DNA of 41,485 bases from the UHGV virus genome UHGV-0203597; one strand, written 5' to 3'. The notes under the pieces are model-generated. The model saw only the letters and a list, made by a program, of their open reading frames with translations. It had not been told where the DNA came from and made no database searches. Each line of letters begins with the position of its first letter. Position 1 is the stretch's first letter. Source of the DNA: a virus. The translations under genes and the position numbers were made by a program. Positions 692 through 25,206 of this stretch are shown here, piece after piece.

Positions 692-1204
692 CTATGCAGG
701 CTTTTTGGATTTGTACGAATAATCCCACGGATAAACATTTCTACTAAGTGGAGCTGTATTCGTTCGTTCATGAAATAATTTTGTGAAATTCAATACGGAA
801 TCCATCCAAACTTTTGCGTTAGCTTTGGTGTGTGCGGGCGGGTCCCAATAAGCTAGTAAGGCTGCATCTCTTATTTCATTGACTGCATATATGAGATATG
901 CGTTACTGGTTGGTTTTGGCCTGTAATTTCCTTGTTCATCAATCAATCCATATGACCACTCATCCCAACACTGTTCAGTACATGAGTATGAATATGATGC
1001 ATATTCACCAATATTGACATGAACCTTTCTGAGATGGAAGCCTAATACTTCGTCTGGTCTTTCAAAAAGAGTATCTTTTCCCAGATCAGGATGATGACCA
1101 TGACGCCAGTGTTGTTTAAAAGCATCTTTTAGCGAAATCAGAAAGTCATCAGTTTTAAACTCACCAGTAGGTATAACCTTCCCGCTATACTCACTCAAAA
1201 ACAT
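692..1204 (-). CDS. YafO-family toxin-like protein (paralog 1)
   Basis: 170 aa; motifs HWRHGHHPDLGKDTLF, RKVHVNIG, YLIY, AALLAYWDPPAH recalled as matching E. coli YafO (RDGxLPDxFGRD, VAHIHL, LVYC, AWLLIAILKPEPH); 14-nt overlap with upstream gene. Confidence 0.5.
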   Translation of the reverse strand: MFLSEYSGKVIPTGEFKTDDFLISLKDAFKQHWRHGHHPDLGKDTLFERPDEVLGFHLRKVHVNIGEYASYSYSCTEQCWDEWSYGLIDEQGNYRPKPTSNAYLIYAVNEIRDAALLAYWDPPAHTKANAKVWMDSVLNFTKLFHERTNTAPLSRNVYPWDYSYKSKKPA

Positions 1205-1640: not shown

Positions 1641-2336
1641 TCAGAAGAACCCTGCCTTGTCGTTGATGTACTCCGCGTGGGTCTGGATATCACGCAGGCA
1701 TTTGCTCACACCGACGATGTAGCAGAACATGGTGGTCAGCTCCGCCGCCGCGCCCGATACGTCGTGCCCGTCTTCCTGTAACTGGTTCAGCAGATTCATC
1801 AGCAGTGAGTTCTCCGTCAGGCCGAGAACACCAGACGGCGAGTGAATCAAACTGCGGTAGCCGGGCTTCAGTGGGGCGCTGTAGGTTTTGTTCTCTATCT
1901 TCATTGCCTGCATCACTGCTGATGCTGTGGCGTTGGCTACCTGGTCGGCAACCATCTTTATGCGTTCTTCCTGCGGGAGCGAGTTTTTAATGTAACTTCC
2001 GGTGCGGCGGATCTGAGGAAGAACCTCACCTGTAACCCATTTACGAAAGCGGTAGGGGATAGTGCCTGGTGTCACTGCGTCGCGGCAGCGGAGGATCAGT
2101 GTGTAGAGGCCTGACTCGGAGATGATGATCGATTCTTGCTCACCGCCAGGGGTGTCGGTTGAAGCGACGCCCTTCTCATCATCATCAAGTTTTCGAACAG
2201 CATCTCGATGGTTTGCTATGCCTATAGCCCGACAAACATCTGAAGCGATAAACCATGGCTCACCATTTATGACGATTACTCGTATATCGGCTTGGGATTC
2301 GAAAGAAAAAATGGACGTGCTTTTTGTAGCTGTCAT
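1641..2336 (-). CDS. BRO-N domain antirepressor-like protein with Ant-type C-terminal domain
   Basis: 231 aa; N-terminal motif PWFIASDVCRAIGI typical of BRO-N; C-terminal ~70 aa paralogous to the small protein at 3805-4062. Confidence 0.75.
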   Translation of the reverse strand: MTATKSTSIFSFESQADIRVIVINGEPWFIASDVCRAIGIANHRDAVRKLDDDEKGVASTDTPGGEQESIIISESGLYTLILRCRDAVTPGTIPYRFRKWVTGEVLPQIRRTGSYIKNSLPQEERIKMVADQVANATASAVMQAMKIENKTYSAPLKPGYRSLIHSPSGVLGLTENSLLMNLLNQLQEDGHDVSGAAAELTTMFCYIVGVSKCLRDIQTHAEYINDKAGFF

Positions 2337-2605
2337 AGTGGTTACCTTTTAGTCTGGTTAATCACCACTACCGACGCCAATCGGTTGGTGGTGAACTGTG
2401 CAGGGTTGGCGTAACCGGCTAAAAGGACCCGGCGCACCTTTCGGTGCCCCCACACAGCCCACCATAATACGAATGTGGCCGTGCTATACGCATAAAAAAA
2501 CCGCTTGCGCGGTGAATGCGCCTTTTAGTAATCCGGAACGCCAATCCCGGCACTGGATTTTGCCAGTGCCCGATTACTATGGCACAAGAGGAGTGCAATG
2601 TAAAT

Positions 2606-2620
2606 TTACCGCAAAGGTAA
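2606..2620. promoter_or_regulatory. TTACC-N5-GGTAA operator-like palindrome
   Basis: ttaccgcaaaggtaa in the 420-bp divergent intergenic region between the BRO-N gene and 2758-3285. Confidence 0.45.
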
Positions 2621-2730
2621 TGATAAATGCATAACTCACGTCATTTCAACCCTATGTGGTTTGATTGATCCCATTTCAGAAAATACCTGCCTATTTTTTT
2701 GCCAGTGAGCGTATACTTTCGATAGAATGT

Positions 2731-2757: not shown

Positions 2758-3285
2758 ATGAACACGAAGAGAGTTACAGCGATGAGGCATAGACGCTTTG
2801 CCTTGAAAAGGCCTGAAAAAGAAAAAGAGCAAGAGATGGTGATTGAAGCAGCCGCTTATGCTGCAGCTATGGCAACTGCTGATGCGATTAGAAATTATGA
2901 AGAAGAGGATAATAAAAATTCCTATCGCATTTACTTATATGAGAGCCGTCACAGTGTTACAGACCATGAAGCATGCCTAAAAAAACAAGGGGAAGTATTC
3001 CACTGCAACCTTGCTGAGTACATTAGGAATGAAATGGAAAGGAATTTGGCTTTATCTCATTTTGGATACAAGAGTCAGGAAAGTGGTTTCGCTGGCTTTA
3101 AGGATAAAATTAACGAAAGGTGGCAACGTTTATACAAGCCACTTCAAGTTGATGAGAAAACTCATCAACTTGTTATGCATGAGGTCCCAAAGATGTCCGT
3201 AGAGAAATCCCATGCAATCTCGCGCAGGATGTTTGCACGCACTGCTGAAGACATGGCTCAGGAGCTCTACGACGATGCCGAATAA
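2758..3285 (+). CDS. Hypothetical charged helical protein, putative partner of YafO-like paralog 2
   Basis: 176 aa from ATG 2758 (alternative 2746); acidic C-terminus ELYDDAE; stop overlaps start of downstream toxin-like gene; unrelated to the 108-aa partner. Confidence 0.4.
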   Translation: MNTKRVTAMRHRRFALKRPEKEKEQEMVIEAAAYAAAMATADAIRNYEEEDNKNSYRIYLYESRHSVTDHEACLKKQGEVFHCNLAEYIRNEMERNLALSHFGYKSQESGFAGFKDKINERWQRLYKPLQVDEKTHQLVMHEVPKMSVEKSHAISRRMFARTAEDMAQELYDDAE

Positions 3286-3781
3286 ATTCCAGGGGTTGGT
3301 TCACCCTGGAATTTTTGGGAAGGACCCTGAGCTAATACCTATCAAAAACGCGTTCATAGATCACTGGCGCTACGGTCATCATAAGGATTTCGGAAAGGAC
3401 ACTCTGTTTCGAGATCCACCGAAAGAGATGCTGGAATATCACATACGCCACGTTCACTTAAACATCGGAAACTATACTGACAAGTTTGGTGAGAGCGGTA
3501 CGGAACAATGCTGGAAAAACTGGGCGTCTGGGAAGAAAGACAAGACCACTAACAAGCATAAAAAGATCCCAACCAGTGACGTGTATGTGATTTATCTGGT
3601 CACATCTGAACGCCATGCCTTCCTTCTGGATTATTGGGATGAACCAGCGCATAAGACAGTAGAAATTGACGAGCAGAAGCAAAAATTAGTTGTCGAGTGT
3701 GACAGAATTTTGCGGCTGAAAAAGTTAGAATCCATGCCGCGCGATGCAAGTTTGTGGGACCCAGAATTTTACGACTGTTAA
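3275..3781 (+). CDS. YafO-family toxin-like protein (paralog 2)
   Basis: 168 aa from MPNKF; motifs HWRYGHHKDFGKDTLF, RHVHLNIG, YVIY, AFLLDYWDEPAH align with paralog 1. Confidence 0.5.
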   Translation: MPNKFQGLVHPGIFGKDPELIPIKNAFIDHWRYGHHKDFGKDTLFRDPPKEMLEYHIRHVHLNIGNYTDKFGESGTEQCWKNWASGKKDKTTNKHKKIPTSDVYVIYLVTSERHAFLLDYWDEPAHKTVEIDEQKQKLVVECDRILRLKKLESMPRDASLWDPEFYDC

Positions 3782-3782
3782 T

Positions 3783-3808
3783 GGCCGCTTTCGCGGCCTT
3801 TTCTTTAT
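3783..3808. terminator. Bidirectional terminator hairpin GGCCGC-TTTC-GCGGCC plus T-tract (second copy)
   Basis: Same 18-mer as 427-444; between convergent genes ending at 3781 and 3805. Confidence 0.6.
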
Positions 3809-4062
3809 GTGGTTTGTTTTCGTAATTGTTCGGCACAATAGTCGAGATGTGTTTGCAGATCCTGCATAGACATCTGTGAGCTGGTGACGTAGTTAATCAG
3901 TGCAGTCAGTTCGGCAAGTGGGCCATCGACATTAAATCCATCCTTATCGAGATCCCGGAGTAATTTCATCAAGTGCGATCCCTCCACCAGTGACCTGACG
4001 CCTCCCGGCGTGTGAATCCTTTCGGTAAATCCGTCTTCCAGTGGATAGTGATACTGCTGCAT
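3805..4062 (-). CDS. Small Ant C-terminal-domain-like protein; candidate SOS-inducible antirepressor
   Basis: 85 aa from ATG 4062 (GGAGAAG RBS); paralogous to the C-terminus of the BRO-N protein; LexA box about 20 nt upstream. Confidence 0.5.
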   Translation of the reverse strand: MQQYHYPLEDGFTERIHTPGGVRSLVEGSHLMKLLRDLDKDGFNVDGPLAELTALINYVTSSQMSMQDLQTHLDYCAEQLRKQTT

Positions 4063-4081: not shown

Positions 4082-4101
4082 AACTGTATATTTATACAGT
4101 A
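4082..4101. promoter_or_regulatory. LexA (SOS) box
   Basis: aaCTGTatatttatACAGta; minus-strand reading TACTGTATAAATATACAGTT matches consensus TACTGTATATATATACAGTA at 18/20. Confidence 0.6.
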
Positions 4102-4138: not shown

Positions 4139-4153
4139 TTACCTGAAAGGTAA
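4139..4153. promoter_or_regulatory. TTACC-N5-GGTAA operator-like palindrome
   Basis: ttacctgaaaggtaa, identical to the site at 25529; between the LexA-box gene (minus) and the tailspike (plus). Confidence 0.45.
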
Positions 4154-14608: not shown

Positions 14609-14623
14609 TTACCGTTGAGGTAA
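14609..14623. promoter_or_regulatory. TTACC-N5-GGTAA operator-like palindrome (left operator region)
   Basis: ttaccgttgaggtaa. Confidence 0.5.
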
Positions 14624-14670
14624 TAATTATGCGTATATGGTTTGATGTCAATAGATATGAGTTAAAAAAA

Positions 14671-14685
14671 TTACCCGTTAGGTAA
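14671..14685. promoter_or_regulatory. TTACC-N5-GGTAA operator-like palindrome (left operator region)
   Basis: ttacccgttaggtaa. Confidence 0.5.
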
Positions 14686-14704
14686 TCGAATAGGCAATAA
14701 AAAA

Positions 14705-14720
14705 GCCGCCATAAGGCGGC
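14705..14720 (-). terminator. Terminator hairpin downstream of the repressor gene
   Basis: gccgcc-ataa-ggcggc flanked by A/T tracts; T-tract follows on the minus strand. Confidence 0.6.
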
Positions 14721-14742
14721 TTACTTACTGAAAAATATGGTT

Positions 14743-15327
14743 TTATTGTTTGTTTTTTTCGTTCTGGTTGATGACAAATTCAATGTAACTTTCGATCTTT
14801 GCTTTCTCGGTTTCGGGTAACAATGCGTAGCGTGAGCGGTCATAGTTGATAGTCGCAGGGTCGTGCGGGTGAATCAGTAGTTCATATCCGTGACGCCCGA
14901 ATGCGGATGCAACATTCTCCAGGGTGGAAATGGAAACGCTGACCTCATTGTTTAACAGGCGGCTGATTGTCACCTGGGCGACGCCGGATGCGCGGTGAAG
15001 TTTTCCCTGAGTTGAAAGGTCGCGGCTTTCACTCATCCAGCGTTCCAGGTTGTGAGCTGCCAGCTGACCAATGTCGCTTGGGCCGACAGGCTGAAAACCT
15101 TCCTGAGAAAGCGAGCGATCGATATCAAGCCAGTTACGGGGTTTATTGGCGGCAGCTTCAATTTTTCGCGCAACCTGGTCGCCGATAACCTTCTTGCCAA
15201 GAGCCCAGCGGTTTACCAGATTTGCCTGAGTTCCAAGTTTTTCTGCCATCCGCGTCTGAACACCATTGAATTCACGGTCGATCAAGTCGTTGAGATTTTG
15301 CCTGCGGACGTCCTGGATACTTTTCAT
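14743..15327 (-). CDS. Prophage repressor, two HTH domains, no LexA-like autocleavage domain
   Basis: 194 aa; HTH-like segments near residues 25-45 and 105-130; no Ala-Gly/Ser-Lys protease module; flanked by operator palindromes on both sides. Confidence 0.6.
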   Translation of the reverse strand: MKSIQDVRRQNLNDLIDREFNGVQTRMAEKLGTQANLVNRWALGKKVIGDQVARKIEAAANKPRNWLDIDRSLSQEGFQPVGPSDIGQLAAHNLERWMSESRDLSTQGKLHRASGVAQVTISRLLNNEVSVSISTLENVASAFGRHGYELLIHPHDPATINYDRSRYALLPETEKAKIESYIEFVINQNEKNKQ

Positions 15328-15382
15328 TTTCTGGAAAATCGCCTCATATATGAATCAGTAGATGATTCAATTTAAAGCAATA

Positions 15383-15397
15383 TTACCCAACAGGTAA
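15383..15397. promoter_or_regulatory. TTACC-N5-GGTAA operator-like palindrome (right operator region)
   Basis: ttacccaacaggtaa between divergent repressor and cro-like genes. Confidence 0.5.
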
Positions 15398-15430
15398 ATG
15401 CACCCCATAGGTAACTATCCTTGATTTTTG

Positions 15431-15445
15431 TTACCTTATGGGTGA
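15431..15445. promoter_or_regulatory. TTACC-N5-GGTgA operator-like site (right operator region)
   Basis: ttaccttatgggtga, one mismatch. Confidence 0.4.
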
Positions 15446-15481
15446 ATATTTATTATCTGAAATAAATATCAGGCAATAGCT

Positions 15482-15712
15482 ATGAGCGATAACGGACATT
15501 TCGATTTCAAAAAGCACTGGCTTGCACTTACTCCGGATGAGCGTGAAGCCTTCGCACAGGAAGCCGGAACGACGAGTCACTATATCCAGACTCACTTAAC
15601 AGGTAAGCGCAAAATGCCAGGTAAGGTATTGATGAATGGGCTTTTTAAAGCATGTAAAACAAGACAATGGCTGCGCTCAAAAGCGGAACTGGCATACTTC
15701 TTCTACTCATGA
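15482..15712 (+). CDS. Cro/CII-position small HTH regulator
   Basis: 76 aa; divergent from repressor; HTH-like EAFAQEAGTTSHYIQTHLTGKRK. Confidence 0.5.
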   Translation: MSDNGHFDFKKHWLALTPDEREAFAQEAGTTSHYIQTHLTGKRKMPGKVLMNGLFKACKTRQWLRSKAELAYFFYS

Positions 15713-16078: not shown

Positions 16079-16888
16079 ATGAGCAGACATGCAACAGATT
16101 GGGCTTGGGAGACAGATCCAGGTAGCTCATCATTAAAGCTCATACTGCTCTCGATGGCTGACAGAGCCGATGAATATAACCTCTGCTACCCCAGCATAGA
16201 ACGCCTCGTTAAAGACACTTGCCTGAATAAAAAAACCGTGCAGGCCGGGCTTATATCGCTCATGAAAATGGGGATTATTTCAGATACCGGAGAGAGAAAG
16301 GGAGCGACAAAAAGAGTGCGGGTTTTCTCTCTTAATATAACCAAAAACGGGAACATTAAAGGCAACCGGGAGGGGGGCAATGAACCCGAAAACGGGAATA
16401 TACCCGAAAACGGGAATATACCCAAAAACGGGAATATACCCAAAAACGGGATGTTGAATGATCCCAAAAACGGGATCCAGAACCAGTCATATAACCAGTC
16501 ATTTAACCAAGAGAGGGAGAGCAGGACAAAAAGCGGGGATTCTGTGCCTCATGACCCCGGAGCAAACAACGCCGTGATGAATAACTTTGTTCCTCCTGGT
16601 GGGCCAGGGCAATTAGGCAAATTTGTCATGCATGAACAATGGCAGCCATCAGATGACTTTCTTCGGAAAAGCTCATTGCAGGGGATCTACCTGGACAGTC
16701 TGCCAACGGCACAGGAACTTGCAGAGTTCAGAATTTACTGGATGGCTGAGGGTAAGGCATACCATCAGGCACAGTGGGAGCAGAAGCTGGCAAGGCGGCT
16801 GCAGATTAGCAGACAGAAGCAATCAACATTACCTGATAACAACGTTCCGCACTGGAACAGCCCTGAAGCATGGGAGGATTTCTTGTGA
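16079..16888 (+). CDS. Replication initiator (lambda O-like role) with N-terminal HTH domain and internal iterons
   Basis: 269 aa; N-terminal winged-HTH-like segment; internal ENGNIP peptide repeats from DNA iterons; translationally coupled to P-like gene. Confidence 0.6.
   Translation: MSRHATDWAWETDPGSSSLKLILLSMADRADEYNLCYPSIERLVKDTCLNKKTVQAGLISLMKMGIISDTGERKGATKRVRVFSLNITKNGNIKGNREGGNEPENGNIPENGNIPKNGNIPKNGMLNDPKNGIQNQSYNQSFNQERESRTKSGDSVPHDPGANNAVMNNFVPPGGPGQLGKFVMHEQWQPSDDFLRKSSLQGIYLDSLPTAQELAEFRIYWMAEGKAYHQAQWEQKLARRLQISRQKQSTLPDNNVPHWNSPEAWEDFL
16385..16474 (+). repeat. Iterons: five copies of CCC(G/A)AAAACGGG, four at 18-bp spacing (putative origin)
   Basis: Copies at 16385, 16403, 16421, 16439, 16463; each is an internal palindrome; followed by aaccagtcat x2. 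Confidence 0.6.
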
Positions 16889-17670
16889 ACAACGTTTTTA
16901 CCGCGATACAAAACCGTGACGGAGAAGCCCTTTCTCGCATGTCAGGTTATGAGCATCAGTACGTCAACAATGACAATGTGGTGAACATGTCAGCAGAGAG
17001 GCTTGTTGATGCCCTTTTTAAACAGCTGAAACAACTGTTTCCGGCGGCAGTGGTAACCAACCTGAAGACGCCAGAGCAGGAAGTTGCTGCAAAACAGCAG
17101 TGGATTGCTGCGTTTGCCGAAGGGGGGATCCGAACCCGTGAACAGGTTTCTGCTGGTATGCGCCACGCCCGCGCCAGTGAATCTCCGTTCTGGCCGTCGC
17201 CAGGGCAATTTATCAAGTGGTGTAAAGACAGCAAGATGGTTCTTGGCGTCACCATTGACGATGTGATGGCGGAGTTTCACCGGTACAGCAAGGAAAAAAG
17301 TTTATATCCTGGTGGTCCCGAAAGATTCCCGTGGCGGCATCCGGTTATGTACTGGGTCGTATGTGATACCCGCCGTGCAATGTATCAGCGCCAGCTTAGC
17401 GAGATTGAGGTTGAGAAACACGCGCGCAGGCTGCTTGATGATTGGGCGAAAAAGGTGGCTTCCGGACAGCAGATACCCGATCCGGTGATCAGCATACAGG
17501 CAAAGCCAGAACCCATGAGTACGCCTCCGGACACAGGGAGAGACGTTTACCATCCACCAGGGCGAAGTTTCGGGTGTATGCCTAACGCCGCTACCCTGGG
17601 GGGAATAACACCGGCGCAGTGGCTGATGGAGGAATACAGGCGGGGAAAGGCGGCAGGATTTATCAAGTAA
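16885..17670 (+). CDS. Lambda P-like replication protein (helicase loader)
   Basis: GTG start overlapping initiator stop; extended similarity to recalled lambda P (SPFWPSPGQF vs RPFLPSPGQF; LYPGGPERFPW vs LYPDAESYPW). Confidence 0.8.
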   Translation: MNNVFTAIQNRDGEALSRMSGYEHQYVNNDNVVNMSAERLVDALFKQLKQLFPAAVVTNLKTPEQEVAAKQQWIAAFAEGGIRTREQVSAGMRHARASESPFWPSPGQFIKWCKDSKMVLGVTIDDVMAEFHRYSKEKSLYPGGPERFPWRHPVMYWVVCDTRRAMYQRQLSEIEVEKHARRLLDDWAKKVASGQQIPDPVISIQAKPEPMSTPPDTGRDVYHPPGRSFGCMPNAATLGGITPAQWLMEEYRRGKAAGFIK

Positions 17671-17707: not shown

Positions 17708-17722
17708 TTACCTGTTAGGTAA
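17708..17722. promoter_or_regulatory. TTACC-N5-GGTAA operator-like palindrome
   Basis: ttacctgttaggtaa. Confidence 0.45.
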
Positions 17723-17769
17723 TAAAATATTCTAAAATCTATTGATTTCGTGTCTTATGTGGTTTTTAA

Positions 17770-17784
17770 TTACCTCAGGGGTAA
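17770..17784. promoter_or_regulatory. TTACC-N5-GGTAA operator-like palindrome overlapping the RBS of 17788
   Basis: ttacctcaggggtaa ends 3 nt before the ATG. Confidence 0.45.
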
Positions 17785-19825: not shown

Positions 19826-20316
19826 TGCAAATTTCACCGGTTACTCTTCGTGTTGCGAAGGCGTTTATATCCAGACATCACCGACACAATAACCCCCCGG
19901 TGGGGCATAAATTCAGCATTGGTCTGAGAAATGATGCCGGAGAATTGATAGGTGTGGCGACAGCCGGTCGACCTGTTGCACGACATTTGGATGATGGATT
20001 AACGCTTGAAGTAAATCGCACATGTACCACAGGAGAACGCAACGCTAACAGCGCGCTTTATGGTGCTGTCTGGCGGGCAGCAAAAGCTATGGGTTATCAA
20101 CGTTGTATTACGTACACCCGGGCAGATGAATCAGGAGCATCTCTTCGCGCAGCTGGTTTTGTTCGTGTGAAAGAGCTTCCTCCAAGAAAAAGCTGGGCGG
20201 AATCAAGCGTCGCCCTGCGGAGTAAACGCGATCCAGTCGGAAACGGTGGTGTTCCTCGTGTGCTCTGGGAAATCAGGATAATGAGTACCACTGGTATTCG
20301 CATCAAAGGAGAGTGA
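19826..20316 (+). CDS. Hypothetical protein, possibly acetyltransferase-like fold
   Basis: 163 aa from MQISPV; AAAGGAG RBS; pattern LIGVATAGRP...TYTRADESGASLRAAGF reminiscent of an acyl-CoA N-acyltransferase core (uncertain). Confidence 0.4.
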
Positions 20317-24523: not shown

Positions 24524-24931
24524 TCATCGGCTGGCTGTTTGTGACATGTCACTGTGTTGTTGCTCGCTTAACTTCTGCTTCAGCAAGTAACCTTCAAGCA
24601 TCCAGATTTTGTTTACAGCATTCTGCCGGGCAATCTTCCGACCAATTTCTGCATCAAAATTTTCCGGACTTGCACAGGCACTCTCTCCGGTGACAGTGAA
24701 GCCATTCTTCAGCACCAGTACGCAGAAAGTGAGAAGGTGCAGAGCATCAGGGGTGGCTTCGACATAAGGCTCCGGATTATAAATAAGGTCATCTTCTTTA
24801 GCCTGGTGATCACCCTGCGCAGCAGTGAAAAAATGCTCACTGCAAATGAGGCCTTCAATTTTCTCAGGTGTTACACGCGGTGCCGTTTTGCCTTTCTCAA
24901 CGATTTCTTTTTCGATTTGCTGGTCGTTCAT
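24524..24931 (-). CDS. Hypothetical protein, antisense to the late operon, downstream of tRNA
   Basis: 135 aa; AAGGTGAG RBS; same strand as tRNA; family not recognised. Confidence 0.5.
   Translation of the reverse strand: MNDQQIEKEIVEKGKTAPRVTPEKIEGLICSEHFFTAAQGDHQAKEDDLIYNPEPYVEATPDALHLLTFCVLVLKNGFTVTGESACASPENFDAEIGRKIARQNAVNKIWMLEGYLLKQKLSEQQHSDMSQTASR
24541..24552. repeat. 12-bp palindrome GTGACATGTCAC, copy 3 of 3
   Basis: Inside the last codons of the minus-strand gene; adjacent to hairpin gccagc-tcatcg-gctggc. Confidence 0.5.
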
Positions 24932-24966: not shown

Positions 24967-25052
24967 GAACTGGAAGCAATGAGTTATGCCTTCCGTGGCT
25001 GTACTGGTTTACAGCATGAAGTCATCGCAATGGCGTCCTGCTGTAAAAAGGG

Positions 25053-25129: not shown

Positions 25130-25206
25130 TGGCGTGGCATGCAGGATTCGAACCTGCGACCAACCGCTTAGAAGGCGGTTGCTCTGTCCAACTGAGCTAA
25201 TGCCAC
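25130..25206 (-). tRNA. tRNA-Arg (anticodon UCU), phage-encoded variant
   Basis: 77 nt GTGGCATTAGCTCAGTTGGACAGAGCAACCGCCTTCTAAGCGGTTGGTCGCAGGTTCGAATCCTGCATGCCACGCCA; full cloverleaf with 7-bp acceptor stem, GTTCGAATC T-loop, encoded CCA; D and T arms match recalled E. coli argU, acceptor and anticodon stems differ. Confidence 0.85.

Follow-up and report, generated by a model that had tools for sequence, protein, structure and literature searches.

Rep of a phiV10-like phage as an SPC32H-type repressor probably inactivated by a LexA-controlled antirepressor without cleavage

We analyzed a window of 41,485 nucleotides, the whole stretch of virus genome UHGV-0203597, to which all coordinates below refer. 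Its master lysogeny repressor, Rep, is the 194-residue product of an ATG-to-stop open reading frame on the minus strand (14743..15327) and belongs to the SPC32H Rep family. Our main reading, to which we give a probability of roughly 0.85, is that Rep is the lysogeny-maintenance repressor of a phiV10-like Uetakevirus, an ortholog of SPC32H Rep, and that it is inactivated without cleavage by a small antirepressor, Ant, whose gene is under LexA control.

By homology with the SPC32H system, the switch would operate as follows. A Rep tetramer would bind palindromic operators through its N-terminal domains and block PR and PL and probably a number of other promoters. DNA damage would lead to RecA-stimulated cleavage of LexA and to de-repression of ant. 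Tetrameric Ant would then bind the C-terminal part of Rep and split the tetramer into dimers, with release of the DNA, and Rep itself is predicted to stay uncleaved during this Ant-driven induction.

Genomic context of the repressor gene

The DNA of the rep region is 97.8-98.4% identical to that of Escherichia phage phiV10 and of phages closely related to it, namely PAS61, the O157 typing phages 9 and 10, phiv142-3 and ZX5. phiV10 and its kin are epsilon15-like temperate podophages of the genus Uetakevirus. The order of the genes is as in phiV10, running from ant through the tail fiber gene, the lysis genes, the integrase gene and the recombination genes to rep, and from rep through a cro-like gene, the replication genes and the terminase to the structural genes. 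A terminator-like hairpin lies directly 3' of rep (14703..14722, minus strand), at the same place where the phiV10 annotation has a terminator. On this side rep is flanked by the terminator and small early genes, and on the other side by a divergent cro-like early regulator (15482..15712, plus strand) that matches phrog_35, a transcriptional repressor family (5.6e-13). The preliminary description had placed the gene at the cI position, and this placement holds: rep is divergent from the cro-like gene, and the PL and PR regions to either side are rich in operator-like palindromes.

Rep matches phiV10 gp40 and ORF21 of vB_EcoP_ZX5 at 100% identity, with no difference at the protein level. In GenBank, gp40 carries the note 'two helix-turn-helix motifs (PF01381); similar to putative repressor epsilon15p38'. 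Overexpression of ZX5 ORF21 abolished free phage and lowered the transcripts of holin and endolysin by 99.97-99.99% (PMC9782041). In addition, a DNA-damaging microcin induces prophages of the phiV10 species 21- to about 50-fold, which fits an SOS-linked switch.

We considered whether the ORF at 14743-15327 might instead encode some accessory protein with an HTH, such as a HigA/VapI-like antitoxin, and not the immunity repressor. One phage record labels the identical protein 'plasmid maintenance system antidote protein VapI', and there is a weak, sub-threshold match to the NCBIfam HigA model (18.7 bits vs a cut-off of 47.7). Such an assignment is nevertheless hard to credit given the location of rep, divergent from cro and between operator-rich PL and PR, the full-length homology to a characterized repressor that is described below, the block to lytic growth on overexpression of the identical protein, and the absence of a toxin gene adjacent to rep. 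We regard the antitoxin reading as barely worth entertaining.

Domain organization of Rep

A phmmer search of the PDB aligned residues 1-190 of Rep with residues 2-197 of SPC32H Rep (5D50_A; E 4e-42), and 5D4Z aligned over Rep residues 89-190. In a BLASTP comparison the two repressors are 42% identical (E 2e-53). PMC9986798 describes SPC32H Rep as composed of an N-terminal DNA-binding domain (DBD), a middle dimerization domain (MDD) and a C-terminal CAD/TetDloop, the last of which tetramerizes the protein and also binds the antirepressor. Divided in this way, Rep is closest to its SPC32H counterpart in the DBD, with 53% identity; the MDD is at 32% and the CAD at 43%. The references for the SPC32H system are PDB entries 5D4Z and 5D50, Kim & Ryu 2013 (J Virol) and Kim et al. 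2016 (PNAS).

By homology, Rep would likewise be built of three modules. Residues 1-72 (15112..15327, minus strand) are the predicted N-terminal HTH DNA-binding domain, placed by alignment, model and homology. Residues 85-152 (14872..15075, minus strand) form an HTH_3-like domain that is the likely equivalent of the SPC32H MDD, recognized by Pfam and by a Foldseek match to 5D4Z; its boundaries were drawn from the AlphaFold model and the alignment. Residues 153-194 (14746..14871, minus strand) make up a C-terminal tail that aligns with the C-terminus of 5D4Z/5D50 and would be the equivalent of the CAD/TetDloop, serving in tetramerization and Ant binding. Every defining feature of the SPC32H Rep-Ant family that can be tested in a sequence is found in the window.

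The structural model that we used is of the Rep monomer and was built by AlphaFold from a 41-sequence homolog alignment (mean pLDDT 80), a single-sequence prediction having been unusable (pLDDT 45). It consists of two helical bundles (residues 4-59 and 85-151), with a disordered linker between them (74-83), and a long C-terminal helix (172-193). The helices of the N-terminal bundle span residues 4-19, 24-31, 35-43 and 50-59. DSSP assigns no beta strands to the model, nor does this monomer show a strand where the TetDloop has its short beta segment. The best Foldseek matches in the PDB are all chains of 5D50 and 5D4Z, with TM scores of 0.69-0.75 (normalized to the target) for the C-terminal part of Rep against 5D4Z; the other listed matches are HTH/XRE-type regulators and a few HppE/HEPD/MPnS enzyme chains.

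The preliminary description had read the protein as a repressor with two HTH domains. Both HTH-like segments are real, as judged from Pfam, PHROG and the model, but by homology the second of them corresponds to the SPC32H MDD and would be a dimerization domain, not a second DNA-binding domain. It is this second segment that Pfam recognizes most clearly, as HTH_3 at residues 106-147 (38.5 bits vs a cut-off of 23). The N-terminal half (residues 21-61) draws only sub-threshold HTH-type matches from Pfam (YdaS_toxin at 21 bits, and DUF739). PHROG repressor families match both halves, the N-terminal one with phrog_5736 (2.8e-11) and phrog_12107 (4e-10), and the same half aligns with the N-terminal part of 5D50_A. 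Across the Rep family the predicted recognition helix, NLVNRW, is conserved, and it is present in both Rep and SPC32H Rep; N36, R40 and W41 do not vary in the 41-sequence alignment. In the C-terminal tail, Y162, L170 and F184 are invariant in the family alignment. We also asked whether the two HTH halves could have arisen by internal duplication and found no evidence for it, as BLASTP gave no alignment between them at E<=100.

Absence of a self-cleavage module

It had further been proposed that Rep lacks the Ala-Gly / Ser-Lys peptidase module of LexA-like repressors, with domain search and structure prediction as ways to look for a cryptic S24 fold. Both methods bear the proposal out, returning two helical HTH-like bundles and no S24 module. 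Pfam gives no match of Rep to Peptidase_S24 (PF00717) even at E<=1, no LexA or cI C-terminal-domain structures are among the listed Foldseek matches, and the model is all-helical. The dipeptides AG and CG are absent from the entire Rep sequence. Rep has neither the S24 domain nor the AG/CG site that define the self-cleaving repressor class. It resembles lambda CI, LexA and P22 C2 in genomic role and position, and in having an N-terminal HTH for palindromic operators at divergent promoters, but their S24 domain, Ala-Gly site and Ser/Lys dyad are missing from it.

ImmA/IrrE-type metalloproteases cleave XRE-family repressors. Proteolysis might inactivate Rep in either of two ways, by a cryptic RecA-stimulated self-cleavage or by a partner metalloprotease of this type, and the middle domain is indeed XRE/HTH_3-like, with weak fold matches that include DdrO, a substrate of IrrE. 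No other observation favors proteolysis. Against this stand the missing S24 domain, AG/CG site and beta structure, and also the gene content of the phage, in which, unlike in an ImmR/ImmA system, no Peptidase_M78/ImmA-like or other protease domain was found among the ORFs scanned, those outside the virion structural genes. The SPC32H ortholog, moreover, is said to remain uncleaved during SOS. In Salmonella prophages of this type, repressor cleavage is not the major outcome, according to PMC7380047. Taken together, inactivation of Rep by proteolysis appears very improbable.

The small antirepressor and its LexA box

The gene that would supply the inactivator of Rep is ant (3805..4062, minus strand), which encodes an 85-residue antirepressor of the SPC32H Ant family, as identified by 5D50_E and phrog_450. 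The match to 5D50_E, 'Anti-repressor protein', has an E-value of 1.3e-47, and identity is 88% (tblastn). A predicted LexA box, CTGTATATTTATACAG, lies at 4084..4099, 21 nt upstream of the ant ATG; it is a perfect CTGT-N8-ACAG and directly precedes the GGAG Shine-Dalgarno sequence of ant. The position of this box, of its flanking blocks and of a palindrome at 4139-4153 is conserved in SPC32H and phiV10. No ant promoter emerged from a consensus promoter scan. A weak candidate found by eye, TAGCAA-18-TATAAA, has its -10 hexamer inside the LexA box, and similar hexamers occur in the corresponding SPC32H sequence. From the position of the box, and from what is reported of SPC32H, we infer that it overlaps the ant promoter. 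SPC32N is said to be constitutively lytic owing to a point mutation in its ant LexA box.

Rep and Ant travel together. Homologs of Rep were found in 36 full-length phage records and homologs of Ant in 35, in essentially the same genomes, which are Uetakevirus-like and come from Escherichia, Salmonella, Klebsiella and Enterobacter.

The biochemistry of the SPC32H pair has been described. SPC32H Rep binds DNA as a tetramer, and Ant, itself tetrameric, binds to two dimers of Rep and disassembles the tetramer, as stated in PMC9638917; in Salmonella prophages of this type the antirepressor is made after self-cleavage of LexA, as stated in PMC7380047. The present phage shares with SPC32H its genus, Uetakevirus, the position of rep, the length class of the repressor (194 vs 198 residues), its full-length homology and DBD-MDD-CAD layout, an Ant protein that is 88% identical, a LexA box equally placed upstream of ant, and the operator core palindrome TTACC-N5-GGTAA at matching intergenic positions. 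It differs in that its Rep has just 42% identity, the operator-like palindromes are less A/T-rich in their central 5 bp, OL has two full sites where SPC32H has three, and a gene for a Bro-N/Ant fusion with accompanying C4 and IsrK RNAs is present here and absent from SPC32H. The earlier suggestion that induction probably depends on a second, LexA-controlled protein is supported by this comparison: an SPC32H-type Ant and a LexA box are both present, and by analogy with the ortholog, for which the mechanism is published, they would act in the same way here.

Some observations weigh against the proposed mechanism. Rep is only 32-43% identical to SPC32H Rep in the dimerizing and Ant-binding domains, and conservation is much higher in Ant (88%) than in the protein it presumably targets (42%). 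Given the low identity of Rep, Ant is predicted by extension from SPC32H to bind it. The gap in conservation between Ant and Rep could reflect mosaic exchange rather than co-evolution. In the ZX5 study, the antirepressor assayed was the Bro-N protein, not the small Ant (PMC9782041).

Two further perfect matches to CTGT-N8-ACAG, at 24999 and 29541, bring the total in the window to 3 vs about 0.6 expected by our own estimate. We did not accept these two as LexA boxes, as they are probably chance occurrences or unproven.

Operator-like palindromes

A search for TTACC-N5-GGTAA with at most one mismatch found 15 sites vs 0.64 expected, a number reached by none of 100 shuffles. Every one of the palindromes lies between genes, in a genome with a coding fraction of about 92%, and they overlap or abut predicted PL, PR and other promoters. 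The gap between rep and cro holds an OR region (15383..15445) of three palindromes, one perfect (15383-15397), one with two mismatches (15400-15414) and one with a single mismatch (15431-15445), and SPC32H has three sites in the corresponding gap. The last of these overlaps the predicted PR, whose -35/-10 hexamers span 15428-15456 on the plus strand. In the OL region (14609..14685), the predicted PL (TTGACA-17-AATTAT, 14651 down to 14623 on the minus strand), a strong promoter-like match that would drive the leftward early operon, has a palindrome on either side, at 14609-14623 and 14671-14685.

Operator-like sites extend well away from this switch region. The palindrome at 4139..4153, in the gap between ant and the tail fiber gene, has a counterpart in SPC32H at 20013-20027, and a pair at 17708-17722 and 17770-17784 (17708..17784) lies at a promoter predicted downstream of the replication genes. 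The remaining intergenic copies are at 1560, 2731, 9057, 15768, 22330, 22348 and 25529. The units with such sites are the early left and early right units, the post-replication unit, the terminase, a gene in the portal region, the integrase, the gap between ant and the tail fiber gene, and the moron region.

The same motif recurs in relatives. SPC32H carries TTACC-N5-GGTAA in three copies at OL, in three at OR and at matching distal intergenic positions, and a Klebsiella relative likewise has it at syntenic positions. That SPC32H and the present phage have the palindrome in common fits the conservation of the NLVNRW recognition helix, and Rep is predicted to bind these sites.

A second antirepressor module

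The window contains a second gene for a protein with an Ant domain (1641..2336, minus strand), in which an N-terminal Bro-N domain is fused to a C-terminal Ant-like domain. Its C-terminal 74 residues (150-223) are 42% identical to the small Ant, and the protein as a whole is a 100% match to ZX5 ORF4, the 'anti-repressor' of that phage. Overexpression of ZX5 ORF4 lowered prophage titer about 1000-fold and repressor transcripts by 75% (PMC9782041).

The predicted control region of the fusion gene (2384..2649, minus strand) comprises a promoter-like site, an operator-like site and two RNAs. The promoter scan places TTGAAA-18-TATCAT at 2649 down to 2620 on the minus strand, and a Rep-like operator lies beside it at 2606-2620. 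An isrK-like RNA (2494-2569, minus strand; Rfam isrK, 72.3 bits) and a C4 antisense RNA (2384-2469, minus strand; Rfam C4, 77.7 bits vs a gathering score of 45) complete the region. Positions 44-51 of C4 are complementary to 2345-2352 of the leader, a segment that covers the Shine-Dalgarno sequence of the fusion gene, and positions 58-64 to 2374-2380. The 8-mer taken alone is weak, since 75 of 1000 shuffles reach an 8-mer complementarity; RNA duplex folding against the leader was uninformative, with a z-score of -1.6 for C4 and of +0.7 for IsrK, and the exact-word matches say more, though their significance is weak.

The choice of antirepressor is the most serious alternative to our main reading. 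The fusion protein, gated by the C4/IsrK RNAs, could be the main physiological inactivator of Rep, the small gene with the LexA box having a minor role or none. The effects of overexpressing the identical ZX5 protein, the kinship of its C-terminal residues to Ant, and its own promoter-like site, Rep-like operator and RNA control elements would all suit such a role. However, we found no LexA box near the fusion gene, yet phiV10-type prophages respond to DNA damage. In phiV10 the C4 and IsrK RNAs are present but the fusion is truncated inside its Ant-like domain, whereas both the small ant and the LexA box upstream of it are intact. The small Ant is, in addition, 88% identical to a protein that has been shown to work in SPC32H, and the two antirepressor routes are compatible with each other. 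We therefore consider it unlikely that the fusion protein is the main inactivator and retain the LexA-controlled Ant in that part. The Bro-N/Ant fusion is probably a second, SOS-independent route to inactivation of the same Rep, which does not replace the route through LexA and Ant.

The arrangement of this module resembles that of P1 immI (c4 antisense RNA - icd - ant), including the presence of a C4 antisense RNA. In both, a C4-family RNA precedes an antirepressor gene on the same strand, two segments of the C4 RNA are complementary to the downstream leader including the ribosome-binding site, and a repressor operator, here an operator-like site, is found at the promoter of the module. P1 also has many dispersed intergenic operators, for C1, as the present phage has Rep-like sites. 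On the other hand, Rep is unrelated to C1, the antirepressor here is a fusion of Bro-N and Ant domains, and no icd-like ORF is evident. A functional parallel would rest on this analogy of arrangement.

These observations raise a broader picture of Rep in phiV10-type phages, which we put forward tentatively and hold, as a whole, to be somewhat less probable than not. Rep might be a genome-wide silencer that acts beyond the PL/PR switch through about 13-15 operators, these would stand at nearly every transcription unit in a manner resembling P1 C1, and Rep might integrate two homologous inputs, the LexA-gated Ant and the C4/IsrK-gated Bro-N/Ant fusion.

Comparison with other systems

The finding on Rep is correct and already known, because the exact protein has been annotated (the two-HTH note in GenBank) and tested as a repressor (in ZX5), and the antirepressor mechanism has been published for an ortholog. 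The phiV10 and ZX5 studies make no connection to the small Ant of SPC32H or to LexA, and neither 'SPC32H' nor 'LexA' occurs in the ZX5 paper (PMC9782041). Our analysis adds nothing new to the Rep-Ant paradigm and extends it by inference to the phiV10 group, which comprises phages of E. coli O157 and gut commensals that are in use for reporting and typing and that DNA-damaging bacteriocins induce.

For the combination of a LexA-gated Ant, an RNA-gated Bro-N/Ant fusion and genome-wide operators in phiV10-type phages, we found no description in the literature searched, which did not extend to the primary papers on epsilon15 and SPC32H; dispersed operator-like sites may be mentioned in those papers. 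The dual antirepressor modules and the dispersed operator-like sites are of modest interest and could justify a small follow-up. Both rep and the 85-residue ant merit specific names, as NCBIfam has a model for neither and Pfam gives Rep generic HTH matches. In phage records, Ant is mostly a 'hypothetical protein', and Rep appears generically as 'helix-turn-helix protein' or 'VapI antidote'.

The logic of a non-cleavable repressor is shared with Gifsy-1/-3 and Fels-2 (Lemire et al. 2011) and with CI/Tum of coliphage 186, although the proteins are unrelated and we saw no sequence relationship to the present Rep or Ant. The SPC32H-type Ant is reportedly distinct in structure from the Tum and Gifsy antirepressors. 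In the Gifsy, Fels-2 and 186 systems, SOS is sensed indirectly, via a LexA-repressed antirepressor that acts by protein-protein contact (PMC7380047).

A more distant likeness is to Rco/Rap of the Bacillus plasmid pLS20, where an N-terminal HTH DNA-binding domain is combined with a C-terminal p53-like tetramerization module (PMC9986798). The anti-repressor also targets this module, as is argued for SPC32H Rep in that article. The pLS20 system differs in that Rco is without the middle HTH-like dimerization domain and serves in the control of conjugation.

Candidate Rep-type operators across the genome

The window contains 15 TTACC-N5-GGTAA palindromes of 15 bp each, the candidate operators of the lysogeny repressor Rep, at positions 1560, 2606, 2731, 4139, 9057, 14609, 14671, 15383, 15431, 15768, 17708, 17770, 22330, 22348 and 25529, and every one of them is intergenic. 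Several overlap or adjoin promoter-like sites, often directly 3' of the -10 hexamer, and the motif recurs at syntenic intergenic positions in Salmonella phage SPC32H and Klebsiella phage BUCT711. This placement, together with the synteny, suggests from sequence that the Rep regulon is genome-wide, reaching beyond OL and OR, the palindrome clusters at the predicted promoters flanking rep.

Three such palindromes lie in the moron-like region, which is situated between the structural genes and ant, the gene for the small putative antirepressor, and is ~2.4 kb larger than in phiV10. Two paralogous phrog_1651 proteins are encoded within it, at 692-1204 (-) and 3212-3781 (+), one of which has a weak, sub-threshold match to the YafO toxin.

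A second Ant-domain gene preceded by C4 and IsrK RNAs

A second Ant-domain protein is encoded at 1641-2336 (-), where a Bro-N domain is fused to a C-terminal Ant-like domain. This domain shares 42% identity with the small Ant of the SPC32H type, and the fusion protein and the small Ant each match phrog_450. The fusion protein has the same sequence as ORF4 of ZX5, an 'anti-repressor' examined in overexpression experiments. In phiV10, the homologue of the fusion protein is truncated within the Ant-like domain. Upstream of the gene, a C4 antisense RNA (2384-2469 (-); Rfam, 77.7 bits) and an IsrK Hfq-binding RNA (2494-2569 (-); Rfam, 72.3 bits) are arranged in tandem. They are preceded by a promoter-like site, where a Rep-like operator lies at 2606-2620. 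Parts of the leader of the fusion gene, including its Shine-Dalgarno sequence, are complementary to the C4 segments CCUUUUAG and ACGCCAA. This layout, which resembles that of P1 immI, is present in phiV10 and absent from SPC32H and BUCT711.

Control and conservation of ant and rep

A second perfect match to the LexA box pattern CTGT-N8-ACAG, CTGTACTGGTTTACAG, occupies an intergenic position at 24999-25014, 68 bp upstream of a gene for a Phage_gp49_66 family protein (24524-24931 (-)) and adjoining a tRNA gene (25133-25206 (-)). It may be a chance occurrence, since the equivalent region of SPC32H has no perfect match. In BUCT711, the stretch 16866-17314 holds an Ant homologue that shows 63% identity, and a palindrome of the Rep type lies upstream of it, at 16965. 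No perfect LexA box was found near this gene, the only one in that genome being at position 384, and BUCT711 ant may be under different control or have a degenerate box.

Ant, encoded at 3805-4062 (-), is 88% identical to its SPC32H counterpart, whereas Rep, its presumed target, encoded at 14743-15327 (-), is only 42% identical, with 32-43% identity in the parts for dimerisation and Ant binding. Mosaic exchange or a tolerant interface could account for this gap; a tolerant interface, if real, might allow cross-induction between phages.

The MKSI N-terminus of Rep is invariant among 41 homologues. No good Shine-Dalgarno sequence is found at normal spacing ahead of rep (15328-15345), the closest GAGG lying ~13 nt upstream of the ATG. 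The rep mRNA may be weakly translated or may carry little leader, much as with the PRM transcript of lambda cI.
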